From: an uncultured cyanobacterium
GTDB taxonomy: Bacteria; Cyanobacteriota; Cyanobacteriia; Cyanobacteriales; CAWCAG01
Reading direction: 5' to 3'
Assembly: GCA_963793425.1 (NCBI GenBank)
Contig: CAWCAG010000009.1
Span: forward strand, 1,077,805 to 1,141,804
DNA: 64,000 bases
In this document: piece by piece, positions 461 to 39,363 of the stretch
Layout: every line of letters starts with the position of its first letter
Position numbering within the stretch: position 1 is the first letter of the stretch
The notes under the pieces: model-generated
Databases searched by the model: none
Told to the model about the DNA's origin: nothing
What the model saw: the letters and a program-made list of their open reading frames with translations, nothing else
Translations under genes and position numbers: made by a program

Positions 461-977
461 GGGTATAAAGCCTCGTCCTCGCAGGACTGCTCTTATTCAT
501 TTTAGTCTGTGTTTATACTCGCCATGGTAGTATAACTTGGGAGGCAAACCTAGACAGATTTTGAGTAAACATCATCTCAAAATAAGTAGGCAATCGTATT
601 GCATCACGCTGTGAAATTAGCGCGGTGCGTAGTTCAGTCTTAAGTCTGACGAATTGATAGCCTATGTTCGGCGAAGCCGTTGCCGAAGGCTAAATCTGAG
701 AATTAAGAATATGGTGAAGAATCATTGTCTAGCTAAGTCTATTAACGAGGCTTCCTGGTATCAGTTCCGTTGCTGGTTTGTGCTATTATTAATTAGGTAG
801 GTGTAACCCAATTAAATGTGTAAATGCAGCCTACATTCAGCCTGGGAAAATTTTCTAAAAACCGGTGCGGATGGGCATCCCGTATCGCAAATAAAGCTCA
901 CTTTTATATCCTAAGCAATAGCCGGAGTTAGTGAGAAGCCCACACTTACAGCAAGCTGAAGTGTGGGAGTATGTCAC
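461..977 (+). mobile_element. tnpB: Decayed IS200/IS605-family element(s): tnpB pseudogene fragments with end hairpins
   Basis: Frameshifted fragments translate as KHHLKISRQ / HAVKLARCVVQS / ELIAY / NLRIKNMVKNHCLAKSINEASWYQFRCW, typical of cyanobacterial TnpB. Left-end-like GGGTATAAAGCCTCGTCC..GGAC at 461. Right-end hairpin GAAGCCCACACTT...AAGTGTGGGAGTATGTCAC ends at 977. Confidence 0.8.
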
Positions 978-1047
978 ACTGGCACTTAATTTATGGGCAG
1001 AATCTCTTACAATCATGGTTTTAGAGTCCTCGGTTAACACTGGCAGA

Positions 1048-2034
1048 ATGGTTCAATTCAATATTCAGCCAGACAGCGAAATACCATCTTCCAAACAACT
1101 GTTTGACCAAATTCAGTTTGCGATCGCCTCTCGACAGTTTCCTCCTGGACATCGCCTACCAAGTACCCGACAGCTAGCGATGATTACGGGACTACACCGC
1201 AATACCATCAGCAAGGTGTATCGCCAATTAGAAGAAACTGGCTTAGTAGAGTCTCAAGCAGGTTCAGGTATTTATGTTAGGGCCCAAGGACATGAAGGGG
1301 GAACTCAGTTAAGTTCTCCGACTCTAGATAAATACCCCCAAGAAGCATATAAATTAGTTCAGCGAAGTTTAGATGAATTGCTAGCTAAAGGTTGTAGCCT
1401 TACCCAAGCCAGGGATTTGTTTTTATCAGAGATTGACTGGCGTTTACGTTGCAGTGCCAGGGTATTAGTCACTATACCGGGAAGAGATTTAGGGGCAGGG
1501 GAATTAATGGTACATGAACTAGAGAAGTCTTTAGGTATTCCTGTACAACTTGTTCCAATGGAAGAGTTAGAAAAGGTCTTAGAACAAACTCACTCCGGGA
1601 CAGTAGTTACTAGTCGTTACTATATTGGTCAAGCAGAAGAAATTGCTGCCCCCAAATCTGTCCGCGTTATTCCGGTGGATATTTATGACTATGGCAAAGA
1701 AATGGATATCATCAAAACTTTGCCCAAGGGCAGTTGTGTCGGCTTAGTTAGTCTTAGTGTTGGTATCCTCAAAATCGCCGAAACAATGGTTTATAGTTTT
1801 AGGGGAGACGAGCTTTTGATTATGAGCGCTCAAGTTACTGATGATTATAAGCTTAAAGCTTTAGTGCGTTCTGCTCAAACTATTATCTGCGATAGTCCTA
1901 GTTATGACTTAGTTAAAAAAGCAATTTTGACTGCTAGAGAAGATTTAATCCGCCATCCTGAGTTGATTTGTAGTGAGAATTACATAGGTTCTAAATCAAT
2001 TAATTTATTGAAGCGAGAATTAGGTTTAGGGTAA
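1048..2034 (+). CDS. plmA: GntR-family transcriptional regulator, PlmA subfamily
   Basis: MVQFNIQPDSEIPSSKQLFDQI...LPSTRQLA...HRNTISKVY GntR HTH followed by the cyanobacterial PlmA C-terminal region. Start moved to ATG 1048 because the upstream ORF extension overlaps the IS end. Confidence 0.88.
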   Translation: MVQFNIQPDSEIPSSKQLFDQIQFAIASRQFPPGHRLPSTRQLAMITGLHRNTISKVYRQLEETGLVESQAGSGIYVRAQGHEGGTQLSSPTLDKYPQEAYKLVQRSLDELLAKGCSLTQARDLFLSEIDWRLRCSARVLVTIPGRDLGAGELMVHELEKSLGIPVQLVPMEELEKVLEQTHSGTVVTSRYYIGQAEEIAAPKSVRVIPVDIYDYGKEMDIIKTLPKGSCVGLVSLSVGILKIAETMVYSFRGDELLIMSAQVTDDYKLKALVRSAQTIICDSPSYDLVKKAILTAREDLIRHPELICSENYIGSKSINLLKRELGLG

Positions 2035-2199
2035 ATAATCTTTCTTTTGAACTAAAAATACTAATTTACTATTGCTAAAATAATTTACTTTTGTTACTTT
2101 GATGAGAGTAAATTAGCTCCTTGCAAATATTAAGCTAGCAATGAAAAATAGTAAAAGCGACCCCAGCATTAACAATCAAACAAGTAAATCTCTACTCAG

Positions 2200-2739
2200 A
2201 TGAGATTGCAGGTTGGAGAAAAGCAAGCAGGATTTACTTTAATTGAGGCAATGATCGTCTTAGTTATCATCTCGATTTTCGCGGCTATTGCTATTCCTAC
2301 TTATTTGCACTTTGCTTCTAAAGCTAAACTTAGGGCTGCTATATTCGAGTTATCCCAATTCTGGAAAGAAACTCGTTTTGATGCTATGGATAGTGGCAGT
2401 ACTCCCTCAACTATCTGCATGGCAGAATCTACTTCAAATCAGGTAGTTTATGCCAAACTGAACGGTAAAGATTGTAACTTAGTCACTGCTTGGCATAGCT
2501 TACCGCGCGGGGTAAGTATTGATGAAGAAAATTCTACTTTGCGTACTGTAAGTGGTGTCGCTGGCAACGATGGCAAAATTTATCGGGTTAGTTGGGCTGA
2601 TACCAAAGCTGGTTACGGGGGATCTTGGGGGCAACTAGGGCGTATTACCCTCCAAGCAGGTACAGCAAAACAATGCCTATTTTTGTTTAGCACCAAGGGA
2701 GATTGGGAAGCAAGGAAGGGAAAGAAATGTTTTAAGTAA
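2200..2739 (+). CDS. Type IV pilin / pseudopilin (prepilin N-terminal cleavage-methylation domain)
   Basis: QAG|FTLIEAMIVLVIISIFAAIAIP class III signal; Cys pairs in the head domain. Confidence 0.88.
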   Translation: MRLQVGEKQAGFTLIEAMIVLVIISIFAAIAIPTYLHFASKAKLRAAIFELSQFWKETRFDAMDSGSTPSTICMAESTSNQVVYAKLNGKDCNLVTAWHSLPRGVSIDEENSTLRTVSGVAGNDGKIYRVSWADTKAGYGGSWGQLGRITLQAGTAKQCLFLFSTKGDWEARKGKKCFK

Positions 2740-2970
2740 GCTAATTGCTAAACTGGACTTCATAAGCAATAGTCAAGAAAGCTTAATAGAGTTGAGATTA
2801 CTTCCTTTCTTCCTTCCTTCCTTGTAGACATTACCGACACAATGTCAAGCAAACGTAAGCGCTTTTTTCTGAGTAATAACTCACCGAGGGGTTCTTCAAA
2901 CAAGCTTTTGTAAGCCCAAATAGGTAATGCCAGATACAATATAGCAAAACAAGAGTCTAGTAAAGAATAA

Positions 2971-3348
2971 CTATTTTCTGGCTAACCAATAGCCAAAGGA
3001 AATGCCAATTAAGCTAGCCACTAAATCCAAAACAGTCAAAGTACGATTAGGAGAGAAGCCTTGTAAAAGTTCTTCAGCAATCGTGAAAATTCCGAATAAA
3101 ACTGGCCATAGAGGCAAAACATAATCCAATAATTTTAGTTTGCGGTGTTTAAAGACTCGATGACCTAAATAGGTTGCGATTGCATAAATAACAAAATGCC
3201 CTATGGTATCGTGATAGGGTATGCGACTTAACCAACCAGGTAGATTTCCTGTATAAGCCACAACTAAAATTGTTAGTAGTGTAGCGCCGTAAATACTCGC
3301 AATAACTTTGACAGAGAGATTATTTGATTTTTGGTTAAGTAATTTCAT
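2971..3348 (-). CDS. VanZ-like membrane protein
   Basis: DTIGHFVIY and EELLQGFSPNRT..DL motifs; several hydrophobic segments. Confidence 0.75.
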   Translation of the reverse strand: MKLLNQKSNNLSVKVIASIYGATLLTILVVAYTGNLPGWLSRIPYHDTIGHFVIYAIATYLGHRVFKHRKLKLLDYVLPLWPVLFGIFTIAEELLQGFSPNRTLTVLDLVASLIGISFGYWLARK

Positions 3349-3424
3349 AAACGAACCAGAACTGTTTTAATTACTTCATACCCAAAGCAGTACTTTTGGG
3401 AAAAGTAAGCAGAAGAAATGACAA

Positions 3425-4435
3425 ATGAGCAATGATAAATCTTTAAAGCAACCAAAAAAGCCAGGTAAATCTCTCCCAGGTAAATTTATTATCAAACTGG
3501 GAAAATTCACTTGGACAACCATGTGGCAAATTATGATGTCACAACTCGCCCCTCGTAACAAATCGGGGGCTTACATTCGCCCAGAAAGTCAGTTCCGTAA
3601 TTCCATTGGTACAGAAGCTTATACCCCCCAGAAAGGGCGCTACCGCCTTTATGCTGGTTTAGGTTGTCCTTGGGCCCATCGTACCTTAGTAACAAGAAGT
3701 CTCAAAGGCTTAGAAGAGGTTGTAGGAGTATCTATTGTTTCTCCTGCTGCTGAAGCGGGAATTTGGGTATTCAATCAAGAAAAAGAAGGTTGTCAAACTG
3801 TTCCTCAATTATATAACTTAGCTAAACCAGGTTATCAGGGACGTTGCACTGTTCCTATATTATGGGACACTGAAACAAAGACGATTGTTAATAACGAGAG
3901 TGCAGAAATTATCATCATGCTGAACTCCCAATTTAACGAATATGCAACAAACCCTAACCTTGACTTATATCCAGAGGAATTGCAGGAGAAAATTGAATGG
4001 TGGAATGAGAAAATTTATCACGCTGTTAACAATGGTGTCTATCGCTGCGGTTTTGCCCAAACCCAAGAAGCATACAACCAAGCTTGTGAGGAACTTTTCA
4101 CTACTTTAGATGAAATTGATACGGCTTTAGCAACTAGTCATTATCTTTGTGGAGAACAATTAACTTTAGCAGATGTGCGTTTATTTACAACCCTGTTCCG
4201 TTTTGATGTAGTCTATTACGGGCTATTCAAATGCAACCGCCGCAGAATTCAAGATTATGCAAACCTCGGCCCTTATTTGCGAGATATTTATCAGTTGCCA
4301 GGGGTTGCTGACACTTGCGATCTCGATAGTGTGAAGCAAGATTATTACGGCAATCTTTTCCCCCTCAATCCAGGAAGTATAATACCTTCGGGGCCAGATA
4401 TTATGCCATTTCTCTCTAAGTCTGCTGAAAGATGA
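3425..4435 (+). CDS. Glutathione S-transferase, omega/Xi class (glutathionyl-hydroquinone reductase)
   Basis: CPWAHR active site; TVPILWD, IVNNESAEI, NNGVYRCGFA motifs. Confidence 0.92.
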   Translation: MSNDKSLKQPKKPGKSLPGKFIIKLGKFTWTTMWQIMMSQLAPRNKSGAYIRPESQFRNSIGTEAYTPQKGRYRLYAGLGCPWAHRTLVTRSLKGLEEVVGVSIVSPAAEAGIWVFNQEKEGCQTVPQLYNLAKPGYQGRCTVPILWDTETKTIVNNESAEIIIMLNSQFNEYATNPNLDLYPEELQEKIEWWNEKIYHAVNNGVYRCGFAQTQEAYNQACEELFTTLDEIDTALATSHYLCGEQLTLADVRLFTTLFRFDVVYYGLFKCNRRRIQDYANLGPYLRDIYQLPGVADTCDLDSVKQDYYGNLFPLNPGSIIPSGPDIMPFLSKSAER

Positions 4436-4489
4436 TCACACTAATTCTCTTTAGTTGTGACAAAAATGTACATATGGGAGAAATAATAA

Positions 4490-5368
4490 ATGTTAAATGA
4501 AAATTGTCTCTATCTCGTCGGTACTCCCATTGGTAACCTAGAAGATATGACCTTTCGGGCAGTACGCATCCTCCAAAGTGTCGATTTAATTGCTGCCGAA
4601 GATACTCGCCATACCGGTAAACTCTTACAACACTTTCAAATTACAACCCCTCAGCTTAGTTATCACCAACACAATTGTCAACAACGCCACCAAGAATTAT
4701 TAAAGCGTTTACAAAAAGGAGAGGCGATCGCCTTAGTAACTGATGCAGGAATGCCTTGTATTTCTGATCCTGGTTACGAACTAGTTAAAGCTTGTGTAGA
4801 AGCTAAAATCTCTGTTGTACCAATCCCTGGTGTAACAGCCGCCATAACCGCTTTGGCAGCCTCTGGATTACCTGGGGAAGGTTTCATCTTTAATGGATTC
4901 TTGCCCTACAAAAATAAACCCCGTCAGGAACAATTAAATAGTATCAAAAAAGAAACTCGTACCCTAATTTTCTACGAAGCCCCCCATCACTTGCTACAAA
5001 CCCTTAAGGATTTAGAAATTACTTTAGGTGAGAATCGTCCCATTGTTCTGGCGAGGGAACTAACTAAACTCCATGAAGAATTTTGGCGAGGTACAATCAA
5101 AGAGGCGATCGCCCTCTATACGAATCTAAGGCAACCCAAGGGAGAATATACTTTAGTGGTAGCTGGGGCAGAAACTGCTGCAACTCTTAATCTTTCGGAA
5201 GCAGAACTTAAAGTTGAATTGCAACAACTATTAAAACAAGGAATGACACGATCGCAAGCTAGTCGCCATCTTGCTGAATTAACTTCTCTGTCTCGGAGGG
5301 AGATTTATCAGTTGTCAATGATACCTAACGGCAACGTAAAGCAGAACAATGATAAATGCTCAACGTAG
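4490..5368 (+). CDS. rsmI: 16S rRNA (cytidine1402-2'-O)-methyltransferase
   Basis: LYLVGTPIGNLED, AEDTRHT, DAGMPCISDPG, ARELTKLHEE motifs. Confidence 0.95.
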   Translation: MLNENCLYLVGTPIGNLEDMTFRAVRILQSVDLIAAEDTRHTGKLLQHFQITTPQLSYHQHNCQQRHQELLKRLQKGEAIALVTDAGMPCISDPGYELVKACVEAKISVVPIPGVTAAITALAASGLPGEGFIFNGFLPYKNKPRQEQLNSIKKETRTLIFYEAPHHLLQTLKDLEITLGENRPIVLARELTKLHEEFWRGTIKEAIALYTNLRQPKGEYTLVVAGAETAATLNLSEAELKVELQQLLKQGMTRSQASRHLAELTSLSRREIYQLSMIPNGNVKQNNDKCST

Positions 5369-7749: not shown

Positions 7750-8847
7750 ATGGCACAAATACTCACTTTTTTAGGGAAAGGCGGTAGTGGTCGTACCACA
7801 GTTGCGATCGCCGCAGCTAAACAGCTTTCTGCCCAAGGTTCTCGTGTTCTTTTGGCAGGACAAGACCCTAGCCCTGGCTTTAGTCTACTCTTGGGAGTTC
7901 CTCTGACCTCTGAACCCCAAGAAATTGCCCCCAACCTCAAAGTTGTCCAACTGCAATCTACCACACTGTTAGAGCAGAGTTGGGATGAGGTTAAAAAACT
8001 AGAGGCTAAATACTTGCGATCGCCGACATTAAAAAATGTTTATGGTCAAGAATTAAGCATTTTACCAGGGATGGATAGCGCCCTCGCTTTAAATGCGATT
8101 CGGGAATACAACCAAAGAGGCGATTATGATGTCATTATTTATGATAGTCCTGGAAACTTAGCAACCTTGAAAATGTTGGGCATTCCTGAAAGTTTAAGCT
8201 GGTATATTCGCCGCTTCCGTCAGGTATTTGTTGATTCTGATGTGGGTAAAGCTATTAGTCCTTTTATTCAACCTGTAAGCGCTGCTATTCTCAATGTAAC
8301 TTGGACAGCAGATAGTTTCGCCAAAGAACCTACCAATGAAGCTAATAACATCCTGGAGGAGGGTAGAGCAGCCTTAGCAGATCCTAACCGAGTAGTTGCT
8401 TATTTAGTCACCAATGATGACCCAGTTGCGATCGCCACAGCTAAGTATCTTTGGGGTAGCGCCCAGCAAGTAGGTTTAACGGTAGGGGGAACTTTACTCA
8501 ATCAAGGGGAAACCACAGATGACATTACCACAGAATTTGCACCTTTAACAGTAACCCCCTTACCAAAACGCCAAGGAAATGATTGGCAAAATTTAATTGA
8601 TGCTTTACCTAATTTAAGAACAGTTCCTCAAGTCCCTAAACCGGTGGAAGTCGATACCGCAGCCCGTGAAGTGCGCCTATTTTTACCGGGATTAAATAAA
8701 AAGCAGGTAAAACTAACTCAATATGGGCCAGAAATCACCATTGAAGCAGGAGATCAAAGACGCAACTTAACTTTACCACCCCAATTAAGTGGTCGTCCTG
8801 TCAAGGGTGCAAAGTTTCAAGATGGCTACTTGATTGTATCTTTTTGA
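7750..8847 (+). CDS. ArsA/Get3-family ATPase with C-terminal alpha-crystallin-like domain (Get3d type)
   Basis: GKGGSGRTT deviant Walker A, LPGMD motif, C-terminal HSP20-like beta region. Confidence 0.85.
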   Translation: MAQILTFLGKGGSGRTTVAIAAAKQLSAQGSRVLLAGQDPSPGFSLLLGVPLTSEPQEIAPNLKVVQLQSTTLLEQSWDEVKKLEAKYLRSPTLKNVYGQELSILPGMDSALALNAIREYNQRGDYDVIIYDSPGNLATLKMLGIPESLSWYIRRFRQVFVDSDVGKAISPFIQPVSAAILNVTWTADSFAKEPTNEANNILEEGRAALADPNRVVAYLVTNDDPVAIATAKYLWGSAQQVGLTVGGTLLNQGETTDDITTEFAPLTVTPLPKRQGNDWQNLIDALPNLRTVPQVPKPVEVDTAAREVRLFLPGLNKKQVKLTQYGPEITIEAGDQRRNLTLPPQLSGRPVKGAKFQDGYLIVSF

Positions 8848-8850
8848 AAG

Positions 8851-8880
8851 ATAGGGAGTAGGGAGTAGGGAGTAGGGAGT
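8851..8880. repeat. STRR-like heptamer tandem repeat (AGGGAGT)n
   Basis: About four copies directly visible. Related tandem arrays at ~13487-13523, 27113-27190, 29330-29357, 29473-29500, 48203-48240, 52687-52810, 56318-56352 and 57546-57572. Confidence 0.9.
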
Positions 8881-8906
8881 AAAGCTTTGAGAAGTTTATC
8901 CTAACC

Positions 8907-11870
8907 TCACCTAATTGCTGGTGGTAAATCCGCCGGAGGAGGGGAATTGCGGCCAGGAGGTATGGGGGGAGAAGCCCCAGGAGGTTCTGGTAAAGGAGGA
9001 GGTGCGCCCTCTCCTTCTTCATTTTCTCCCTCTTTACCCGCAGCCTTATCTCCTCCAGACTCAGAAGAGCCTTCTTCCCCTTCCTTTTCCTTACCTGCTT
9101 CGTCTCCTTCTGCCCCTCCTGGAGATTCCTCCGCCCCTTCTTCTTGCTCTTGATCTCCTTCCCCCTCTACACCATCTGCCCTTTCTGCCCCTTCTTCTAC
9201 TTCCTCCTCCGGCAGAAAACTCTCAATCGTCACAGAACGAGTTTTTTGCTCTCCTTCTGCATTGGTTACTTGTAGGATAATAGTCTCGCTACCCGGTTCC
9301 TTCCCTAAAGGAAAAGCAACCTTTCCCTGTTTATTTACAGTTCCGGGGGAGGGTAGCAACTCAACCTTAATATCTTTGCCCCCCGCAACTTGCCACTCAA
9401 TAATAATCGGCGTTGGTTGTGCTTGGTTGATGGGTACAGAATACTTAGGTTGGGCATCAACCCCATTAATAGTGAACTCAGCAATCTCAAAAGGTACAGG
9501 TTGGGCAATCACTTTAATTATATCGGTTTGGGCTGGTTCGATGGGTTCTTCGGGTTTTTCTTGGGGAACTGGAGTTAATTCAAAAATATAACTCCCGGCT
9601 TTACTGGCCCCGGTAGATACAGACTGGCAGGTTAACTCTAATTTAACAATTACACAAAAACGATCTAACCCCACAGGAATACGGGCATTCTGACACAGTT
9701 GCTGAGTTTGGTTACTTTCGCACAGTTCCACTAACTGCTGAAGATTCTTACCCCGTTTGCAAAGGGCTTGGTTAGCATTCTCTTCCTGGGAACATAACCT
9801 AGCTAACTTCTGGGGATTGACGGTATCAAACTTAAAGGTTCTTTCTTTGCTATTAACGGAACCATCGGGGGCTTTACCCACCAATTTTAACTCCTTGATT
9901 TGATCAGCATCGCCAATTTTCCAATTCAAACGGATGCCGGGGCTAACTCTAACGGGAGGTTGCGGAGTTGCAACCGCAACGGTTTGGGTTTCTTGGTATT
10001 GAGGTTCTGTAGCCGCAAACTCCAACACTTGAGGAACAGGAATACCCGTAATCCGAACTGCACTAGTTTTCGCTGTTTCTACAGCACCTTTTTTACGCCC
10101 TTGAGGAATTAGGGTTAACTCAAAAACATAATCCCCCGCTTTACGGGCATCAGTGGGAACATTCTGACAAACCAATTCCTGTTCCTGTTCGCAAAAACCG
10201 TTTAGTTCTTTAGGTATACCATCCCGGAAATCATAGACAACTGGTTCGCTAGTTAATAAACCATCAGGAGAAACCCCCGATATTTGCAAAGTCTTGATAC
10301 GACGGGGATTATCAACACGCCAACTCAAACTTACCACATCTTCGTTAGCTTCTCGGTAAGTACTGCTATCAGGGACAAATTCCACAATTTCGGGCAAGGG
10401 TTTAGGGCGCAACAACCACCAAATCAAGAAAATCACAGTTGCAATCAGCCCTAAAACAGCTAAAGCAACTAATAAAAAATGCCACCAAGGGCGAGATTGC
10501 CAAACTAAAGTTGCTTGAAAACGGTCGTTAATTAAGGGTAACTGCTGTACATCCTCAACTTCCACACTGAAGTTGATTGTACGGCCATAAAAGGGTCGCC
10601 GCCAGGACTTTTGTGGCTGTACTTCCAATTCAACTTTAGCCGATTCTCCTGGTAACAGGCGCAGTTGTTCTGGGGCTAAAGTGTAACTGCAAACTCCTCC
10701 CCCATCTACTTCCCTAGCATATAATCTTAATTCACGGGGAGTATTGCCCCCATTATGCAAACGCAACTCAAAAACTCCGGACTCATTTCTAATTGTTCCA
10801 ACTACAGTTACTAGTTCAACATCTAATAAATAGATTCCTGACACTTGTAGATAAACAACATCTAAAAGAGCTAAATCGGGGTTGTTGGAAGAATAAAGAC
10901 GCAGAGTGGGGGAGTAAACCCCAGCTAAAGTTCCTAAAGGAGGCTGGAAAAAGATTTCAATTTCCCCTTGTTCCCCTGGATTCAACTCTAACCCTGTATT
11001 CGCTACAATTAAACCCAATTCCTGCAAACCTTCAGGATATTTAACACTGACCCAATCCGAACCAAAATCAGGACAGCTTAAACGGAAACGATCTACCCTG
11101 TCAGTGCGGTTGCGGACAATCGCCTGCATAACCAAAGCTTCGCCAATTTGGACGATTACCGGTTGAACAGAACTTGTGGTGGGTACAATGCTAAAAGTTG
11201 GGTCATTAACAGTTTGGGCTTCCTGAATAAAAGGAATGACCCGCAACCTACCGGGATTAAGGATGGGGGTATGTTCAGGATAATGTTCCTGGGCATCAAT
11301 TTTAAGGAGATATTTGTAAGCATCTGGTAATGCTTCTGGGGGAATATCAAATTGAAAAAATACCTCACTAGTTTGCCCCAAACCAAGGGCTAAGCGTTCA
11401 TAGGGGGAACGACACCATTCATAGACAAATTCTGAAGTTTCGTCAATAGCAAGATCAATTAAAGCACTCTGGTTGCCTTGGTTAGATACTGTCACCCCCA
11501 ACTCCACTGTAGAACCAGAAGTAGCAACCATCTCCCCAGAAGGATTAATAATAATAACTAAGGGTTTACCAGGGGTAAGAGATTGTTCTAGTATCTCCTG
11601 TATTCTTGCCCCTTGTTTAACCCCTAACTTCCGACTATAAAAAGTTTCTCCTTCAACAATATTGGACTGTAAAAAGTTCTCTTGAACGAGAAAGTTAAGT
11701 TCCCCAATAATTACTGCTTCATCTTGTTGCAGATGAGTAGCAACCTCTGTTAAGACTACTTCCCTATTTTCTCGACGTATCCAATTAACAATGTTTCTTT
11801 GACGAGGAGATAGGGCCAAAAGCCCCGCCATTGTTGTTCCTTCCTCAGTATTAAACCCGTCGCCCCTCAT
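8907..11870 (-). CDS. Large single-pass membrane protein: N-terminal wHTH, three Ig-like (COG1470-like) repeats, TM helix, repeated Cys-containing beta-domains, acidic/Pro-rich tail
   Basis: 987-aa ORF; repeated V/L-x-N-x-G/T strands; TM WWHFLLVALAVLGLIATVIFLIWWLL; internal repeats KAGDYVFELTLIP / KAGSYIFELTPVP. Confidence 0.75.
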   Translation of the reverse strand: MRGDGFNTEEGTTMAGLLALSPRQRNIVNWIRRENREVVLTEVATHLQQDEAVIIGELNFLVQENFLQSNIVEGETFYSRKLGVKQGARIQEILEQSLTPGKPLVIIINPSGEMVATSGSTVELGVTVSNQGNQSALIDLAIDETSEFVYEWCRSPYERLALGLGQTSEVFFQFDIPPEALPDAYKYLLKIDAQEHYPEHTPILNPGRLRVIPFIQEAQTVNDPTFSIVPTTSSVQPVIVQIGEALVMQAIVRNRTDRVDRFRLSCPDFGSDWVSVKYPEGLQELGLIVANTGLELNPGEQGEIEIFFQPPLGTLAGVYSPTLRLYSSNNPDLALLDVVYLQVSGIYLLDVELVTVVGTIRNESGVFELRLHNGGNTPRELRLYAREVDGGGVCSYTLAPEQLRLLPGESAKVELEVQPQKSWRRPFYGRTINFSVEVEDVQQLPLINDRFQATLVWQSRPWWHFLLVALAVLGLIATVIFLIWWLLRPKPLPEIVEFVPDSSTYREANEDVVSLSWRVDNPRRIKTLQISGVSPDGLLTSEPVVYDFRDGIPKELNGFCEQEQELVCQNVPTDARKAGDYVFELTLIPQGRKKGAVETAKTSAVRITGIPVPQVLEFAATEPQYQETQTVAVATPQPPVRVSPGIRLNWKIGDADQIKELKLVGKAPDGSVNSKERTFKFDTVNPQKLARLCSQEENANQALCKRGKNLQQLVELCESNQTQQLCQNARIPVGLDRFCVIVKLELTCQSVSTGASKAGSYIFELTPVPQEKPEEPIEPAQTDIIKVIAQPVPFEIAEFTINGVDAQPKYSVPINQAQPTPIIIEWQVAGGKDIKVELLPSPGTVNKQGKVAFPLGKEPGSETIILQVTNAEGEQKTRSVTIESFLPEEEVEEGAERADGVEGEGDQEQEEGAEESPGGAEGDEAGKEKEGEEGSSESGGDKAAGKEGENEEGEGAPPPLPEPPGASPPIPPGRNSPPPADLPPAIR

Positions 11871-11932
11871 TATTTCTTTCTTTTAGGTAGAAGTAATTTG
11901 TTAGTGATCAATTAATAACTGATAACTGTTCA

Positions 11933-12694
11933 TTAACCAAGTTCTTTAGCTACAGAAGCAATAACCTTGCTTAAAGGATGATTAGGCTTGTGTAGATAAA
12001 AGATACCGTTGCTTTGAAGTTGCATCATATCTTCTGAATGGGGTAGAATCCCTGCTAATGGTACGTTGTAGGTTTTTTCAACTTTATTTTTTAAGTCACC
12101 AAAATCAAGATTAGGTAAAGCTTTATTAATCATTAACAATAACTTAGGAACCCCCAAACGACGGGCTACTTCTACGGTGACAGCAGTGCCTTGAAAATCT
12201 TGACTATCAGGGCGCAAAACAATAATCATAATGTCAGAAATGCTGATAGAAAGGAGAGTTTCTTCATTTAAGCCTGGGTGAGTATCAATAAAAAGATAAT
12301 CTAACTCCAACTCATCAATTAACTCGTAAAAACCATCACAAAGCAAGTCAAAATCAAAACCGTCTTTGAGAATTCTGGCAATATCTCCTGTTTTAATGCT
12401 AGAAGGAATGAGAAAAATTTTCCCTGAGTTAGAAGAATTTTGCAGCAACGTACTCACATCGTAGCTAGCATCTTTAATAGAACAATGTCCCCAAAGAAAA
12501 TCATTGAGGGAATTTTGAATTTGTCCTTCTTCAAAACCAAACAAAACATGAATCCCTGGAGATTGAATATCCGTATCGACAACCGCCACTCGCTTGCCAG
12601 TAAGGGCTACACTAACGGCAATATTAGCTGTGGTATTAGATTTTCCGGTTCCTCCCCGAAAGGAATGAATAGAGACGATTTTACTGTTAATCAT
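11933..12694 (-). CDS. MinD/ParA-family ATPase
   Basis: SIHSFRGGTGKSN Walker A, VVDTD, FIDTHPG. No obvious C-terminal amphipathic MinD membrane-targeting helix. Confidence 0.88.
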   Translation of the reverse strand: MINSKIVSIHSFRGGTGKSNTTANIAVSVALTGKRVAVVDTDIQSPGIHVLFGFEEGQIQNSLNDFLWGHCSIKDASYDVSTLLQNSSNSGKIFLIPSSIKTGDIARILKDGFDFDLLCDGFYELIDELELDYLFIDTHPGLNEETLLSISISDIMIIVLRPDSQDFQGTAVTVEVARRLGVPKLLLMINKALPNLDFGDLKNKVEKTYNVPLAGILPHSEDMMQLQSNGIFYLHKPNHPLSKVIASVAKELG

Positions 12695-12739
12695 TGATCA
12701 TTTAAGATTGTTAACTGCTCGTTGTTAACTATTAACTGT

Positions 12740-13078
12740 TTACGGTTCCTCTGTTAACTCTTGGAGAAACTGAGAAGATACTTTACCTTGGTTTTGCTCT
12801 GAAGAAGTAGGAGAATAATAAGTCCCCCCCTCAGCTTGGTTAGTTTGGAGAAATCCTGCTTTAATTAAATCTTCTAAATCTGAGGATACTATTTCTTGTT
12901 CCTTCTCTAAATAATTAGCTACTTCAGCTAAGGTACACTTTTTCTTGCGCCTAATCCAGTTAATTATGCGTCGTTGTTCTGGGGGTAAATGAAGAATTTC
13001 TAAACTAGAACCTGCCCCCCTATTTCTAGATTGCCTACGCTTTTTGCCTAGAAAGTCCTCGAATTGGTCTTTACTCAT
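12740..13078 (-). CDS. Small winged helix-turn-helix protein
   Basis: LPPEQRRIINWIRR...TLAEVANYL...DLEDLIKAGFL HTH pattern. Confidence 0.7.
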   Translation of the reverse strand: MSKDQFEDFLGKKRRQSRNRGAGSSLEILHLPPEQRRIINWIRRKKKCTLAEVANYLEKEQEIVSSDLEDLIKAGFLQTNQAEGGTYYSPTSSEQNQGKVSSQFLQELTEEP

Positions 13079-13251
13079 AGCTACTTTTGTCCTTGCTTAC
13101 CAGTGATTGTGACCTTGATTGTTGTTTTACACTACTAGCAATAAGTCTAAGATGCTCAATAGAGCCAAGAAGTAACAATCAGCTATAATCGTTGACAGCT
13201 AGTTGCTATAACAACTAAAAAGTTTTTCAGTTTAGAAGAGATTTTATTTTC

Positions 13252-13482
13252 ATGACAGTAATTCAACTTGTACAAATTATTTGGGCTGCATCTGCTTTTC
13301 TGTTAATAGTCTTGGTACTATTACATAGCCCCAAGGGAGATGGCATTGGCGGTATTGGTGGCCAAGCTCAATTATTTACTAGCACAAAAAGTGCAGAAAA
13401 AACTCTCAACCGCATTACCTGGGCCCTTAGTATTACTTTTATTGCCTTAACTATTGTTTTGAGTGCAGGCTGGTTAGGGTAG
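13252..13482 (+). CDS. secG: Preprotein translocase subunit SecG
   Basis: LVLLHSPKGDGIGGIGG...KTLNRITW; two TM segments. Confidence 0.95.
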   Translation: MTVIQLVQIIWAASAFLLIVLVLLHSPKGDGIGGIGGQAQLFTSTKSAEKTLNRITWALSITFIALTIVLSAGWLG

Positions 13483-31158: not shown

Positions 31159-33093
31159 CTATTGAGGAATATTGGGAATGGCATTTTCCCCCTGCAATCT
31201 TTGCCGCACATCACTATTTGGTATATAGCTGTAGTTGAAGTCGTTATAGGGTTGAGAATCATCCATAATGCGAGGTGTAACCAAAACAATCACCTCAGCC
31301 CTTGTATTATCCCTATCTGTACTTCTAAATAGAGAACCAATAATCGGTAAGTCTCCCAAAATTGGTACTTTACTTGTTACAACCCTTTCTTGTTCTTGGA
31401 TAATTCCAGTAAGTACCAAGGTTTGACCATCTCGCAAGCGCACCAACCCAGAGGAAAGAGAACGTTCACTTAATAAAGCTATAGTATTACTGATACCAGC
31501 CGCTTGGATGTTTTGAGTATCTCCTATGGCCGTAATTTCCGGATTAACGGTAAAACTAACAAAACCGTTATCATCAATGCGATCTACCTCAATACCTAAA
31601 ATCAGTCCTGCTGGTTCTTTTTCTACGGTAATGGTGGTAGTAATAGCTCCCCCAGCAATAGTTTGCTCTGTTCGGATATTAGTAACTACTTCTTGAAAAA
31701 GCCTCACAGCCGCTTGCTGACCTTCTTGGACAATCAAAGTTGGATCTGTAATAATCTTGGCATTATTACTAACTACAGCAGCCTGAAGCTGAGCTAAAAA
31801 TCTTCTTCCCACATCAAATTGGCTCACTCCTGGTATAGTTGCTAGCCCTGTACCTATACCAGTACTGGGGAGATTAGCGCTAGAAGGAGTGGTAGTATCA
31901 GAGCCACCTAAACTGAGGATACCCACACCAAACTGATTGATAAAAGATGTGTCATTAATACCAAAAGAGAAGCTAGTACCGAAAATATCGTTACTAGTTA
32001 AATTAACATCAATAACCTTGACATTAATAGCCACCTGTCGCCGCCGAGCATCTAGTTGAACTAAAAATGAAGTGGCAATTTCCACTTCATTAATAGGCCC
32101 GATGATGGTAATGCTGTTCAAGCGTGGATCTGTTGCTATAGCTAGGCCTCTGAGGAGAAATGTTGTTTCGCCCTCCTCATCTTGTTCTGCTGTTAAGGTT
32201 GTTAACTCAGCAGGTAGGGGTCTTGTTCCAATTACTTCACCAGTTTCCCTGTTAGTAATATCTGCGTCTGTCTGGGTGAGAATCTGTACGGCTGCTCCTT
32301 GGCTAGCTAAGAAGGTTGCTGCATCTCCAGCATTAACCTGGTTAAGACGGAAAGTGCGAGTAACAATATTGCGGGCGCTATCAGGTAAACTTCCTCCCAC
32401 CAAAATAGTTTGATCATTACGAGATGCTTTTAAACCAGAAAGCTGGAGAATATAGTTAAAAGTATCTTGTACCGACTCATTTTGTAGATCCAAAGAAACA
32501 ATGGGAGTAACACTGTCTTCGGCTTCATCGGAGTAAACCAGGTTTAAGCCTGCGGTGCGGGCCAAAAGAGAAAGGACTTCCCTTACCGAAGCTTCTCTCA
32601 ATACTAAGCGAGGTATTCTTGCCCCTGTCCCTAAATCAATAACTTGAGGAACCGGAACAATTGTCGAAATACTAATGTCTCCTACCGGAGGAGCTACTGC
32701 CCTAGGTAAAAGAGGTGGGGCAGGGGCCACTGGTTGAATGGGGCCGCTAGGAGAAGCTGGCTGCCCGTCGATGGTAATATCCGGATTGGGAACCAATACA
32801 TCTGGAGTAGATTCAGGGAGGATTGGTATAGGCTCAGGTGGATCTGGGGTTTGGGCTACAGTGGTTGTTTCTGCTGCGGGAGTTTCATCTACAACAACTT
32901 CTTCATCTACAACAACATCTTCTTCGACTTCTAAAGGTAATGCTGCTAAGTCCTCGTTTTCTGTTGCTAAAACTTCTTGCTCTGAAGATTCTAGCTCCTT
33001 AATTTCGCCATCAACTGCTCTAGCTGGCTGTGCTGCCAGTAGTAACATTGCTACTCCGGCTAAAATTTTGATGGTTTCTGGGTATGTTTTCAC
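31159..33093 (-). CDS. pilQ: Type IV pilus secretin PilQ
   Basis: Secretin C-domain (LRDGQTLVLTG, KVPILGDLPIIGSLFRS, VTPRI); last gene of pilMNOQ. Confidence 0.92.
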   Translation of the reverse strand: MKTYPETIKILAGVAMLLLAAQPARAVDGEIKELESSEQEVLATENEDLAALPLEVEEDVVVDEEVVVDETPAAETTTVAQTPDPPEPIPILPESTPDVLVPNPDITIDGQPASPSGPIQPVAPAPPLLPRAVAPPVGDISISTIVPVPQVIDLGTGARIPRLVLREASVREVLSLLARTAGLNLVYSDEAEDSVTPIVSLDLQNESVQDTFNYILQLSGLKASRNDQTILVGGSLPDSARNIVTRTFRLNQVNAGDAATFLASQGAAVQILTQTDADITNRETGEVIGTRPLPAELTTLTAEQDEEGETTFLLRGLAIATDPRLNSITIIGPINEVEIATSFLVQLDARRRQVAINVKVIDVNLTSNDIFGTSFSFGINDTSFINQFGVGILSLGGSDTTTPSSANLPSTGIGTGLATIPGVSQFDVGRRFLAQLQAAVVSNNAKIITDPTLIVQEGQQAAVRLFQEVVTNIRTEQTIAGGAITTTITVEKEPAGLILGIEVDRIDDNGFVSFTVNPEITAIGDTQNIQAAGISNTIALLSERSLSSGLVRLRDGQTLVLTGIIQEQERVVTSKVPILGDLPIIGSLFRSTDRDNTRAEVIVLVTPRIMDDSQPYNDFNYSYIPNSDVRQRLQGENAIPNIPQ

Positions 33094-33141
33094 GGGGCTT
33101 GACTCCTCTACCTAAAATTAGTGGCATTAGAACAGGTCTTT

Positions 33142-33930
33142 TTACTGTGCTGGTTGAGCTGGTTGAGCTTCTTGGGCTTGCTGTGCTGCTTGAGCTTCTT
33201 GGGCTTGCTGTGCTGCTTCTTCATCGGAGATAGGATAAAGCATATCGAGCCTAAAGGTCGTCTTTAGCTCATTTGTATCTTGGGGAATAAGTTGCCCTTG
33301 TTTAAATTCAAAGGTTTCATTTTCCTTTAGTTCAGAGCGTAAATTGTTAACTACTAAAACCGGTTGAAGTAGCTCAATACTACGCATAATATTCTGAGTT
33401 TGTTGGAAAGTGCCATCTAGTTCCAATGTGATACTTTCCCGCTTCAGCTTACCATCTACTTCTGAGCCCAAAGAGCCATCGTTAATAATGTTGTTATTGG
33501 CTTCACCTGCTTGTGCTTCTTTTTCCACAGGTTGATAACTAACTAACTGCCCCTGTCGGGAGGTTACAAAACGATTAACGTCCAACAACAAGGTATCTAA
33601 GCTTTGTTCATCGGAAAATAAGTTTCTTACTGCCACTTCCCTCTCTTGGGCTTCTACTGCTTGAATTTCCAAGTCAGCTATTTGTCTGTCTAATTCTTCT
33701 ATATTTTCTAGCTGAGCTTTCTTTTCTTCTACTTCAGTATTAGCGTTTTGATATTCTTCTATTTTTGGTTGCACTAACTTAAGGAACATATAAATAGCCC
33801 CTGCCAGACCTAAAACGGCAATAATAATGCCGATAATCGTAGGGGTTAAAGTTATACCAAAGGCTTGGGGATATTGCGGCTCTTCAAGCTCTTCTCCTTG
33901 CCCCGGAACAAATTCTTCTGCAAATGCCAT
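33142..33930 (-). CDS. pilO: Type IV pilus assembly protein PilO
   Basis: Single TM + coiled coil; LDTLLLDVN; position in the pil operon. Confidence 0.85.
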   Translation of the reverse strand: MAFAEEFVPGQGEELEEPQYPQAFGITLTPTIIGIIIAVLGLAGAIYMFLKLVQPKIEEYQNANTEVEEKKAQLENIEELDRQIADLEIQAVEAQEREVAVRNLFSDEQSLDTLLLDVNRFVTSRQGQLVSYQPVEKEAQAGEANNNIINDGSLGSEVDGKLKRESITLELDGTFQQTQNIMRSIELLQPVLVVNNLRSELKENETFEFKQGQLIPQDTNELKTTFRLDMLYPISDEEAAQQAQEAQAAQQAQEAQPAQPAQ

Positions 33931-33937
33931 TATTTAA

Positions 33938-34804: not shown

Positions 34805-34812
34805 AATCTTTT

Positions 34813-39187: not shown

Positions 39188-39363
39188 AAGATATTACCTA
39201 AATAGTAAAAATAGTTAAATAACTTTTTATTGCTTATTTATAAAATTTATGAGCTTAATTTCTTTTGTTTGATCGTATTCAAAATTATATCATTGATTAC
39301 AAACAAGTACAAAAATCCATATAATAATTGTCAGAAGCTAATTAGATTAAATTAATACAAAAT

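Follow-up and report, generated by a model that had tools for sequence, protein, structure and literature searches.

A MinD/ParA-type ATPase and a small winged-helix protein encoded beside a proposed membrane adaptor of contractile injection systems in a cyanobacterium

Why is a MinD/ParA-type ATPase encoded between a small winged helix-turn-helix (wHTH) protein and a large Ig-repeat membrane protein that carries the same kind of wHTH domain at its N-terminus? The question is raised by three co-oriented minus-strand open reading frames (ORFs) at 8907..13078 of the window, by which we mean the whole 64,000-nucleotide stretch of cyanobacterial DNA that was analysed (Table 1). The gene content of this triad can be read directly from the ORF list, which gives spacers of 45 and 62 nt, as the first-pass annotation of three co-oriented genes 45–62 nt apart had it. 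Two units that in most cyanobacteria occupy separate loci come together in the triad. The first is a signalling-type module of a MinD/ParA ATPase, with Arg in its deviant Walker A motif, and the small wHTH protein, usually together with a CHASE2 sensor; the second is the Ig-repeat protein, hereafter BIG, a single-pass membrane protein that in relatives closes a CIS-Sc-like baseplate operon of a contractile injection system (CIS). We give slightly better than even odds (about 0.55) to the reading that the sensor-coupled MinD-type ATPase module acts on a cytoplasmic CIS of the Streptomyces type by engaging its membrane adaptor.

Table 1. Coordinates of the three genes and of the parts of BIG in the window.
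Feature	Coordinates	Strand	Basis
Small soluble wHTH protein, 112 aa	12740..13078	-	ORF; weak Pfam wHTH matches; wHTH family A3
MinD/ParA-type P-loop ATPase, 253 aa, RGGTGKS	11933..12694	-	Pfam AAA_31, ParA, CbiA
BIG (987 aa, Ig-repeat membrane protein), whole ORF	8907..11870	-	ORF list
BIG wHTH head and next helix, residues 14-97	11580..11831	-	BLASTP, AlphaFold2
BIG three Ig-like beta-sandwich domains, residues 104-457	10500..11561	-	AlphaFold2
BIG single TM helix, residues 462-487	10410..10487	-	AlphaFold2; preceded by invariant R-P-W-W-type motif
BIG predicted part beyond the membrane: Cys-pair beta-sandwiches 494-885, acidic/Pro linker, Pro-rich C-terminal motif	8907..10391	-	AlphaFold2, conservation

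An AlphaFold2 model of BIG (mean pLDDT 80.1, 52-row alignment) places the wHTH (residues 14–80) and a helix (87–97) ahead of three beta-sandwich domains (104–457) and the TM helix (462–487), after which follow further beta-sandwich domains (494–885) and a disordered acidic/Pro tail (890–975). This layout agrees with the three Ig-like repeats, single TM helix, Cys beta-repeats and acidic/Pro tail previously described from the sequence. The three Ig domains are the best conserved stretch of the family; W457, R460, P461 and W463 are invariant around the start of the TM helix, C560, C568 and C748 are invariant and C693 nearly so, all of them C-terminal to that helix, and P979, P983 and P984 of the C-terminal motif are invariant or nearly so. 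The Ig domains are probably cytoplasmic and would face the CIS baseplate, while the Cys-rich domains are predicted to lie beyond the membrane. BIG has no above-threshold Pfam or NCBIfam family, its Ig region giving only sub-threshold Pfam matches (NPCBM_assoc and Cep192_D3), and Foldseek returns generic tandem Ig arrays only.

A search for CIS loci beside homologues of the Ig protein, proposed in the first-pass annotation, did find them. In 46 of the 54 relatives whose sequence reaches far enough upstream of BIG (8 kb or more), BIG is the last gene of a CIS baseplate operon, scored as at least three of gp25, Baseplate_J, Tail_P2_I, DUF4159 and an Ig+WD40 protein on the same strand upstream; 8 of the 54 loci carry fewer than three of these families. 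The operon order observed in relatives is gp25, Baseplate_J, Tail_P2_I, DUF4159, sensors, Ig+WD40, BIG, with HAMP-type sensors between DUF4159 and the Ig+WD40 membrane protein, and Pfam confirmed the baseplate-operon families in 9 of 12 context loci scanned. The order from gp25 to Ig+WD40 and BIG is kept in Nostocales, Oscillatoriales-type genera, Acaryochloris and Gloeobacterales MAGs. All 79 BIG loci returned are cyanobacterial, none in another kind of genome context. The genome from which the window derives encodes gp25, Baseplate_J, Tail_P2_I, DUF4159, dCache-HAMP and Ig+WD40 proteins at C9:192250-201679 with no BIG after this operon, and sheath, tube and Pvc16_N proteins on C7; the BIG of the window is the sole copy in this genome. 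Since its baseplate operon lies 890 kb from BIG and lacks one of its own, BIG has been relocated beside the ATPase. The Baseplate_J protein of this genome matches Cis11 of the S. coelicolor CIS (9gtp) with E 9.3e-114, and All3317 of the Anabaena tCIS (7b5h) weakly, with E 1e-4.

The small protein consists of a basic N-terminal stretch, the wHTH and a short C-terminal helix. By BLASTP, its residues 28–89 align to BIG residues 17–79 with 27 of 63 positions identical (43%, E 6e-16), which bears out the paralogy first noticed by eye between the 112-aa protein and the N-terminus of BIG; the small protein was grouped in wHTH family A3. The fusion is not unique to this strain and is found in 45 of 79 BIG homologues; the other 34 are headless, so the CIS can do without the head. 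Among fused-BIG genomes, the small wHTH is present in 11 of 13 examined, with one gene each, and adjoins this ATPase in all 11; a CHASE2 gene lies upstream of the pair in 8 of these, the usual order being CHASE2, wHTH, ATPase. Headless-BIG genomes gave a match to the wHTH family (E <= 1e-6) in just 1 of 16; the two counts are drawn from related genomes and hence overstate independence. The soluble and the membrane-tethered form of one wHTH module, as the first reading of the locus had it, accordingly co-occur across genomes. Three genomes (G068, G170 and G038) possess the wHTH–ATPase pair and no BIG, and in G017 a head of the same wHTH family is fused to a TIR, TM and WD40 protein.

The genes also stand together elsewhere, a point on which the proposed system had been made to depend: the ATPase directly adjoins BIG in four further genomes, with three gene orders other than that of the window. 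The window's order is retained in G211, a genome of the same genus; the others are CHASE2, ATPase, wHTH-BIG in G226, in whose genome the small wHTH was not found, wHTH-BIG, ATPase, small wHTH at L108, within a CIS context, and CHASE2, divergent ATPase, headless BIG in G137. In G029 the two units lie 9 kb apart and are divergently transcribed. G211 harbours a second copy of the whole triad, inverted and decayed, and the three genes were therefore duplicated as one unit; the G211 BIG frame is broken into pieces of 261, 334, 127 and 262 aa, reflecting either decay or an assembly error. Adjacency is the exception, with the ATPase found within flanks of up to 10 kb at only 1 of 79 BIG loci, and the link is usually one between separate loci.

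The ATPase matches Pfam AAA_31, ParA (PF10609) and CbiA at E 1e-17 to 5e-14, and the closest solved relative of its family profile is A. fulgidus MinD-1 (1hyq, E 1.1e-21). It scores 92.1 bits against NCBIfam minD_arch, under the cut-off of 201.75, and also falls below the NCBIfam cut-off for the KGGVGR variant. The Arg that had been noted in place of the signature MinD/ParA Lys in RGGTGKS is a family trait: R13 is invariant in 47 of 47 aligned members, as are G15, T16, G17 and K18. No obvious membrane-targeting helix is visible at the C-terminus in this 47-sequence alignment. The family (E <= 1e-40) occurs in 34 of 201 sampled cyanobacterial genomes, only 7 of which hold a BIG homologue (E <= 1e-78), and it thus reaches wider than the CIS link. 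A wHTH gene is present at just 7 of 30 ATPase loci, many of which pair the ATPase with CHASE2, dCache-HAMP, Tll0287-HAMP or DUF7005 instead; a membrane sensor (CHASE2, dCache-HAMP or Tll0287-HAMP) most often directly precedes the ATPase gene. The CHASE2 membrane sensors of the module carry short basic helical tail motifs in their C-terminal region. A tail profile built solely from ATPase-adjacent sensors of other genomes had as its top match, among the 4,897 ORFs of the window's genome, a 733-aa protein that is CHASE2 by Pfam. The sensor of this genome's CIS operon was not retrieved by the profile among these ORFs; its fit to the tail pattern comes from a regular expression written after seeing that sensor.

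BIG residues 1–100 were modelled together with two copies of the ATPase and two ATP, and a wHTH–ATPase interaction, whose prediction the first-pass annotation had called for, was obtained. The fused head spans the ATP-bound dimer with a score of 0.66 (runs 0.66, 0.73 and 0.62), compared with 0.01 for the best of three controls; contacts agree between runs to 59% or more, with a partner pLDDT of 75 or higher. Among solved complexes, 116 of 157 attain the mark used for such scores, against 2 of 215 mismatched pairs, a calibration that holds only roughly because we used our own alignments and included ATP. In the model, BIG residues 14–19, 25, 29, 32–33, 35 and 80–97 contact both ATPase copies. 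The recognition-helix region (residues 51–63) lies outside this interface, and DNA binding hence remains compatible with the model.

The CIS operons, co-occurrence, adjacency and the complex model all support the earlier suggestion that the wHTH may link the ATPase to something anchored. We propose that BIG, probably with the Ig+WD40 protein, would be the membrane adaptor of the CIS, and that its N-terminal wHTH may be the head at which the ATPase dimer docks in its ATP-bound state. The soluble paralogue might share the ATPase site of the BIG head, as activator or competitor, while the sensor tails would pass environmental signals to the ATPase cycle and the ATPase would set the place or the time of CIS recruitment to the membrane and of firing. 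Baseplate binding by BIG is our inference, as are the direction and outcome of the signalling.

An unlikely alternative is ParA-type positioning, in which the dimer would coat the nucleoid or membrane, the wHTH would stimulate the ATPase, and the resulting gradient would space BIG or the CIS evenly, with the sensors accessory. McdA–McdB does this for carboxysomes and PpfA–TlpT for chemoreceptor arrays, and many ParA activators have a basic N-terminal stretch like that of the small wHTH protein. The ParA/MinD fold, with MinD proteins as best solved relatives, and a modelled interface that crosses both dimer subunits also fit, and a CIS of a different lineage forms about 18 spaced peripheral foci per Anabaena cell (PMC8894136). 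However, the usual place of the ATPase gene right after a membrane sensor points to a switch more than to a self-organising gradient, no determinant of DNA or membrane binding was identified, and the signature Lys is replaced in all 47 aligned members.

More doubtful is transcriptional control, whereby both wHTHs would bind DNA, BIG being a membrane-tethered one-component regulator of ToxR/CadC-like logic and the small protein a soluble repressor or activator, with the ATPase modulating them as FleN does FleQ and expression of CIS or other genes as output. The small wHTH gives weak Pfam matches to Penicillinase_R (6.3e-5), HTH_27 and MarR_2, with ArsR-type HTH_5 also among the weak wHTH matches, the top solved match of the wHTH profile is AspA (4rs8, 5k1y; E 2.9e-4), MarR/ArsR regulators match as well, and the recognition-helix region stays free. 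Yet all these family matches are near or under thresholds, headless BIG is common and still a structural-looking closing gene of the baseplate operon, and the G017 fusion looks like recruitment. Three cytoplasmic Ig domains would lie between head and membrane, an uncommon arrangement in tethered regulators. AspA, which belongs to the ParA-ParB-AspA partition system of Sulfolobus pNOB8, is a small wHTH that works with a ParA-type ATPase, as proposed for the one here; its match is weak, MarR/ArsR proteins matching just as well, and AspA binds the centromere and contacts ParB rather than ParA.

We consider it quite improbable that the pair is an independent ParA–wHTH conflict module that intercepts foreign DNA, its BIG neighbourhood being a by-product of rearrangement. 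A published counterpart is the ParA-wHTH pair of the ConB2 assemblage, a MinD-side ParA-like ATPase with a fast-evolving wHTH (Li, Burroughs, Aravind, bioRxiv 2026, 10.64898/2026.10.19.760177), which like our pair is predicted computationally only. That study describes pairs of ParA and wHTH genes, and it describes ParA switches in TIR-based systems that are enriched among multicellular bacteria; the TIR fusion in G017 and the CHAT and TPR genes that flank several of our loci fit this picture. The published pairs are mainly archaeal, with an elongated N-terminal wHTH helix absent from the BIG head model and a proposed coating of invader DNA; the words 'contractile', 'CHASE2', 'HAMP' and 'WD40', like any CIS or membrane-protein fusion, are absent from the available text. 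PADLOC was weak for the ATPase and small wHTH, with no match for BIG, and chance adjacency would leave the shared domain, the 11/13 versus 1/16 co-occurrence and the four gene orders unexplained. As a CIS that brings about regulated cell death might count as a conflict system in its own right, this alternative overlaps with our main reading. Least probable of all is a general role of BIG in the envelope or in adhesion, with no part in the CIS and an operon position that is only historical, for which its lack of a family, its generic Ig-array folds, the 8 of 54 loci short of CIS families and its separation from the CIS genes in this genome can be cited, against the conserved baseplate-operon order and the exclusively cyanobacterial context of all 79 loci.

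The ATPase-linked CIS adaptor proposed here differs from known systems in its parts. CisA, a bitopic membrane protein required for CIS firing in Streptomyces, is proposed to bring CIS that is free in the cytoplasm to the membrane ahead of firing, upon a signal that was not identified (eLife 2025, PMC12237407). Both it and BIG are single-pass proteins encoded with CISs that share a lineage, as judged by the Cis11 match; each has its N-terminal part in the cytoplasm and a folded domain on the far side of the membrane, a topology that for BIG is predicted. S. coelicolor CisA is described as a 468-aa protein whose N-terminus is unstructured and whose C-terminal domain resembles periplasmic substrate-binding proteins, whereas BIG has 987 aa, Ig-like sandwiches and a wHTH head; the available part of PMC12237407 reports no ATPase or sensor partner for CisA. 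The Anabaena sp. PCC 7120 CIS is intracellular, thylakoid-anchored and tied to stress-induced cell death (Weiss et al. 2022, PMC8894136). It resembles the BIG type in being cyanobacterial, membrane-attached (for the BIG type, as proposed here) and anchored by extra baseplate parts, which in Anabaena are a Cis12 extension, a TM helix in Cis13 and the Cis19 crown; BIG-type operons instead encode a short Tail_P2_I (~350 aa), DUF4159, Ig+WD40 and BIG, and the Baseplate_J of this genome is only distantly related to All3317.

ParA/MinD ATPases work in partner pairs (MinD–MinE, ParA–ParB, McdA–McdB, PpfA–TlpT) in which a small partner acts on the dimer; the partner module also occurs fused to cargo. 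Our ATPase shares the P-loop fold and a modelled partner site that spans the dimer, but differs in its invariant Arg and sub-cut-off NCBIfam scores, in having a membrane sensor as usual operon partner and in its proposed client. Literature searches found no report of a MinD/ParA-type ATPase with a CIS membrane protein as client. The triad thus suggests an undescribed way in which cyanobacteria may control the place or the time of CIS membrane docking and firing.

The triad comprises three co-oriented ORFs, separated by 45 and 62 nt, that encode a small wHTH protein, a MinD/ParA-type ATPase and the Ig-repeat membrane protein BIG. Scanning of the region 8500–13400 yielded 7 promoter-like sites (8.0 expected) and 11 terminator-like sites (5.4 expected), none of which is placed to define or break an operon. 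The first-pass annotation had proposed that the small wHTH is a paralog of the BIG N-terminus, and the comparison of both confirms this with 27 identities over 63 residues (E 6e-16). BIG itself matches no family of Pfam, NCBIfam or PADLOC above threshold, with Pfam returning sub-threshold Ig-like matches only, and its profile has no match below E 0.45 among PDB sequences. An AlphaFold2 model of BIG (mean pLDDT 80.1) reproduces the layout previously read from the sequence, i.e. a wHTH, Ig-like repeats, a TM helix, beta domains and an acidic/Pro tail; its head starts with a short helix at residues 14–18 and contains no long N-terminal helix. The Foldseek matches of this model in the PDB are all generic tandem Ig arrays (from axonemal central-pair proteins, titin and complement), and a component of a contractile injection system (CIS) is not among them. 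Hence, nothing was gained beyond the fold class. Judging from the cytoplasmic wHTH and ATPase and the conserved cysteines following the TM helix, the N-terminus of BIG appears to face the cytoplasm. At the other end, a proline-rich motif closes all homologues after a low-complexity linker, with P979, P983 and P984 invariant or nearly so in alignments of the BIG family; this end could be a sorting or binding signal.

Features of the triad, of BIG and of further genes discussed in the text (positions refer to the window unless a contig or locus is named; C, contig; L, fetched locus; G, genome; G000, genome of the window)
Feature	Position	Strand	Basis
Small wHTH, 112 aa	13078..12740	minus	ORF listing
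ATPase, 253 aa	12694..11933	minus	ORF listing
BIG, 987 aa	11870..8907	minus	ORF listing
BIG, wHTH	residues 14-80		AlphaFold2 model
BIG, helix after wHTH	residues 87-97		AlphaFold2 model
BIG, three beta-sandwiches	residues 104-457		AlphaFold2 model
BIG, single TM helix	residues 462-487		AlphaFold2 model
BIG, further beta-sandwiches	residues 494-885		AlphaFold2 model
BIG, disordered acidic/Pro tail	after the domains ending at residue 885		AlphaFold2 model
BIG, proline-rich motif	8907-8960		family alignments
'NosAFP' ATPase	7750-8847	plus	NCBIfam, 619 bits (cut-off 325)
ORF from TTG, 126 aa	7218-7598	plus	cytochrome b6f Tsr0524-like domain
Type IV pilus cluster	31162-35913	minus	PilM (E 2.6e-116), PilQ/GspD-type secretin
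Radical SAM protein and TcmP	38177-40251		TcmP, E 4.1e-66
Baseplate operon of G000, gp25 to Ig+WD40	C9:192250-201679
TPR-CHAT ORF of G000, 333 aa	G000:C9:190710-191708 (L078 4710-5708)	plus
CHASE2 protein of G000, 733 aa	G000:C9:66214-68415 (L196 6214-8415)	plus	Pfam
wHTH-TIR-WD40 protein, about 1038 aa	L173 (G017:C1:135507-138770) 1438-3264	plus
Triad copy 1 of G211	L219 (G211:C4) 833-4959	plus
Triad copy 2 of G211	L219 (G211:C4) 8159-12463	minus

Several other genes of the window were annotated alongside. The 'NosAFP' gene, encoding an ATPase of the Get3/ArsA fold that ends in an HSP20-like domain, is convergent to BIG and lies 60 nt from the BIG stop, which places a second SIMIBI-class ATPase near the MinD-like one. 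Since the Tsr0524-like domain of the ORF starting with TTG covers residues 64–121 only, the true start of this gene is probably an internal methionine. Two unassigned ORFs lie between the PilM gene and the secretin gene of the pilus cluster, where pilN and pilO are usually found, and a radical SAM protein is encoded divergently to the three-Cys-motif partner protein TcmP.

Of 201 sampled cyanobacterial genomes, 13 contain a BIG homologue at E <= 1e-78 and 17 at E <= 1e-5. About 18 kb were fetched around 13 of the homologues, and 78 neighbouring ORFs from 12 of the loci were scanned with Pfam. At nine of these 12 loci, BIG follows a series of gp25, Baseplate_J, Tail_P2_I and DUF4159 genes on the same strand, i.e. 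a CIS baseplate operon. DUF4159 is often followed by genes for one or two HAMP-type sensors, which are of the Tll0287 or dCache kind and in some cases include a cNMP-binding domain, the last gene before BIG encodes a protein of about 720–800 aa that combines WD40 repeats with Ig-like domains and a TM helix (Ig+WD40), and TPR or TPR-CHAT genes lie downstream of BIG in the relatives. A wider survey with one genome per species and a 6-row alignment yielded 79 BIG loci, all of them cyanobacterial, in which CIS families were called with HMMs built from the first locus set. At least three baseplate families were located upstream of BIG in 46 of the 54 loci that offered at least 8 kb of upstream DNA; the eight exceptions are five Coleofasciculus/Spirulina loci and three in which Ig+WD40 is the only such neighbour. 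The question raised by the first-pass annotation, whether homologues of the Ig protein lie near CIS loci, is thereby answered positively, and because of these upstream baseplate families we conclude that BIG is a conserved CIS accessory protein. The BIG of the window is 31–54% identical to the operon-encoded members over nearly the full length and has in common with them the Ig domains, an R-P-W-W-type TM motif, the Cys-paired C-terminal domains and the proline-rich end.

The baseplate operon of the window's own genome encodes gp25, Baseplate_J (715 aa), Tail_P2_I (360 aa), DUF4159 (489 aa), a dCache-HAMP sensor (478 aa) and Ig+WD40 (717 aa), where it stops, with no BIG gene following. The BIG gene of the window is the sole copy in this genome and lies about 890 kb from the operon; contig C7 carries the sheath gene, three tube genes and two Pvc16_N genes, and contig C5 another tube gene. 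Thus, CIS genes are dispersed over this genome, and BIG has ended up next to the ATPase gene. Just after the Ig+WD40 gene, on the opposite strand, lies a short TPR-CHAT ORF. In relatives, a TPR-CHAT protein of about 777 aa is encoded on the same strand after BIG; the short ORF resembles a relic of the rearrangement by which BIG was moved. Baseplate_J of this genome is far closer to Streptomyces coelicolor Cis11 (PDB 9gtp, E 9.3e-114) than to All3317 of the thylakoid-anchored CIS of Anabaena (7b5h, E 1e-4), and its CIS therefore belongs, by sequence, with the cytoplasmic Streptomyces type. On the same values, equating it with the Anabaena system was rejected; that system is marked by a Cis12 extension, a Cis13 TM helix and a Cis19 crown; in an indirect comparison, the Tail_P2_I protein shows no long extension.

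The ATPase matches the Pfam families AAA_31, ParA and CbiA (1e-17 to 5e-14), and its profile matches MinD-1 (1hyq, E 1.1e-21) among PDB structures. G17, K18, D40, T41 and D137 are invariant in the family alignment, in line with a GK[ST] P-loop and the aspartates of Walker A' and Walker B. The signature lysine of KGGxxK[ST] is replaced by an arginine (R13) in all 47 aligned members, including a 34%-identical paralogue from genome G137. With 92.1 bits for minD_arch (cut-off 201.75) and 61.7 bits for minD_bact (cut-off 212.9), the protein stays below the NCBIfam models of MinD proper (TIGR01969 and TIGR01968), as it does for the KGGVGR-motif variant AAA ATPase (NF047398; 78.3 bits, cut-off 90), and a conserved basic amphipathic segment at the C-terminus, such as the membrane-targeting helix of MinD, is not evident from the 47-member alignment. 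The closest database sequence is 92% identical and all others 72% or less. At E <= 1e-40, the family is represented in 34 of the 201 genomes, a single genome encoding as many as five copies, and the window's genome encodes further, more distant MinD/ParA-like proteins. CHASE2, dCache-HAMP or Tll0287-HAMP sensor genes frequently lie directly upstream and DUF7005 genes downstream. This shows that the arginine variant of Walker A marks a large, sensor-linked ATPase clade. At five loci (L015, L016, L019, L020 and L027), the gene after the ATPase paralogue encodes a DUF7005 protein (E about 1e-165 to 1e-176) in place of a wHTH, which would give the clade a second type of partner.

A small wHTH of the family lies within 1.5 kb of the ATPase gene at 7 of 30 loci. 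Searching the 201 genomes with the wHTH profile gave 14 strong matches (E below 1e-10), seven of which are small ORFs beside an ATPase gene (G000, G029, G032, G044, G068, G170 and G038) and four of which are the head of BIG (G000, G029, G032 and G044). The remaining three are a small ORF 1.4 kb from an ATPase gene (G140), a stand-alone 140-aa ORF with no ATPase gene within 1.5 kb (G080) and the head of a 1038-aa protein in G017; a weaker match in G053 (E 9.9e-6) directly adjoins an ATPase gene. As read from its sequence, the wHTH of the G017 protein is followed by a TIR-like domain, a coiled coil, a single TM helix and then WD40 repeats; its genome contains five ATPase copies. From these matches, the wHTH is a partner module dedicated to this ATPase clade, and it can be fused to single-pass membrane proteins.

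BIG carries the wHTH head at 45 of the 79 loci. We compared 13 genomes with such a fused BIG, namely G000, G029, G032, G044, G220, G226, G217, five represented by the loci L087, L089, L102, L109 and L165, and G211, for which the locus only was used. One small wHTH gene, in every case adjacent to an ATPase gene, is present in 11 of these 13 genomes, compared to a family match at E <= 1e-6 in 1 of 16 genomes with headless BIG (G080), a contrast that overstates the number of independent events because the genomes are related to each other. A soluble and a membrane-fused form, proposed initially from the window, thus occur together among these related genomes. CHASE2 lies directly upstream in eight of the 11 (G032, G044, the five locus-represented genomes and G220); a small wHTH was not found in G226 and in the 92%-complete G217. 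The gene order is small wHTH, ATPase, BIG in the window and in the sister species G211; CHASE2, ATPase, wHTH-BIG in G226; Ig+WD40, wHTH-BIG, ATPase, small wHTH at the Coleofasciculaceae locus L108; and CHASE2, the 34%-identical ATPase, headless BIG in G137. Chance adjacency of ATPase and BIG was rejected, as it does not account for the shared domain, the co-occurrence or these four different orders. Two separate loci are the usual state, with an ATPase gene in the flanks of BIG at only 1 of the 79 loci, and in G029 the ATPase and BIG units are divergently transcribed and 9 kb apart. G211 contains the entire triad twice in inverted orientation; its three genes were thus duplicated together. One copy has decayed (more than 30 stops, 80–86% DNA identity to the window triad), and in the better one BIG is split over several frames, which may reflect decay or an assembly error.

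The ATPase was further modelled as a pair (47-row alignment) together with two ATP and residues 1–100 of BIG (45-row alignment), the latter being the scored partner. The complex scored 0.66 (runs 0.66, 0.73 and 0.62) against 0.01 for the best of three controls, with a contact agreement of at least 59% and a partner pLDDT of at least 75, so that the check by complex prediction proposed in the first-pass annotation returned an interface between the ATPase dimer and the wHTH of BIG. The mark applied, which 116 of 157 solved complexes and 2 of 215 mismatched pairs attain, is only a rough benchmark here as our own alignments and a ligand were used. In the model, residues 14–35 and 80–97 of BIG contact residues 102–123, 144–152 and 176–181 of both ATPase subunits, indicative of a dimer-dependent site. 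As no solved structure is known to us in which a wHTH is bound to a MinD-like dimer, it seems unlikely that the result merely reproduces a structure from the training of the model. The prediction supports binding of the BIG head to the ATP-bound ATPase dimer.

The sensors encoded next to the ATPase and those of the CIS operons are alike in their C-terminal regions in BLAST, which is weak evidence as the alignments include the generic HAMP region. A short basic motif 17–18 residues from the end is found in four ATPase-adjacent sensors and in the dCache-HAMP sensor of the own CIS operon. A pattern for this tail, written by hand after the sequences had been seen, matched the last 45 residues of 2 of 4,897 ORFs of the own genome compared to 0.05 in shuffles. 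A profile from six ATPase-adjacent tails, all from other genomes, retrieved from the own-genome ORFs as top match a 733-aa protein with four tail copies (within residues 503–663), later identified as CHASE2 by Pfam, and did not retrieve the CIS-operon sensor. The link of CHASE2 to the ATPase is hence supported and that of the CIS-operon sensor kept as a lead; a common tail on CIS-operon sensors is not claimed, as only one of them matches the hand-written pattern and the profile did not retrieve that of the own genome. The 733-aa CHASE2 protein is likely the unlinked sensor partner of the window ATPase.

Taken together, we propose with a probability of about 0.35 that sensors of the CHASE2, dCache or Tll0287 type, sharing a basic tail, pass environmental signals to the Arg-variant ATPase, which in turn acts on the BIG head, and that the ATPase cycle times CIS docking and firing. 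BIG, probably together with the Ig+WD40 protein, would be the membrane adaptor of a cytoplasmic CIS, and its wHTH head would recruit the ATPase as an ATP-bound dimer. The soluble wHTH paralogue might compete for, or share, the site of the BIG head on the ATPase, the membrane sensors would modulate the ATPase, and the output would be control over the place or time of CIS docking and firing. The ATPase, with its ParA match, might also work by a classical ParA-type spacing mechanism, which we regard as unlikely; its neighbouring sensors fit a switch better. The small wHTH has a weak Pfam placement among winged-helix regulators; transcriptional control via DNA-binding wHTH domains is viewed as improbable. 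A preprint by Li, Burroughs and Aravind (10.64898/2026.10.19.760177) describes, in its accessible part, mainly archaeal ParA-wHTH pairs and ParA switches in TIR systems. An ATPase gene adjoining a wHTH gene, in the window and in further genomes, resembles these pairs, whereas the BIG head lacks a long N-terminal helix and all family members found are cyanobacterial; the terms 'contractile', 'CHASE2', 'HAMP' and 'WD40' are absent from that part of the text. That the triad is an independent ParA-wHTH defence module has, in our estimate, very little in its favor. The conserved baseplate genes upstream of BIG make an envelope protein unrelated to CIS barely credible.

Among characterized proteins, Streptomyces CisA (SCO4242) is reported to be bitopic and needed for contraction and stress-induced death, with a trigger described as unknown (PMC12237407). 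BIG, with its single predicted TM helix and putatively cytoplasmic N-terminus, may resemble it in topology and would be an analogue, apparently not a homologue, of CisA, from whose described domain make-up it differs. Literature searches yielded no report of a connection between a ParA/MinD-type ATPase and a CIS or T6SS, and nothing on DUF4159 with contractile injection or on a cyanobacterial CIS with WD40 and baseplate. ParA/MinD ATPases that act with a partner module are a known kind, as are CIS that use a membrane adaptor; their combination in this way is not known to have been described before.

For Streptomyces-type cytoplasmic CIS, the signal and the proteins for membrane recruitment and firing are a published open question (PMC12237407). 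Our analysis names candidates for that route in cyanobacteria: the two bitopic proteins that end the baseplate operon, one of them with a docking head, the ATPase predicted to bind this head, and the membrane sensors encoded with the ATPase. For the ParA/MinD field, a phage-tail-like machine would be an added type of cargo or client. If the proposed pathway is true, it would connect signal transduction to CIS-mediated regulated cell death for the first time and give ParA/MinD ATPases a new output class.
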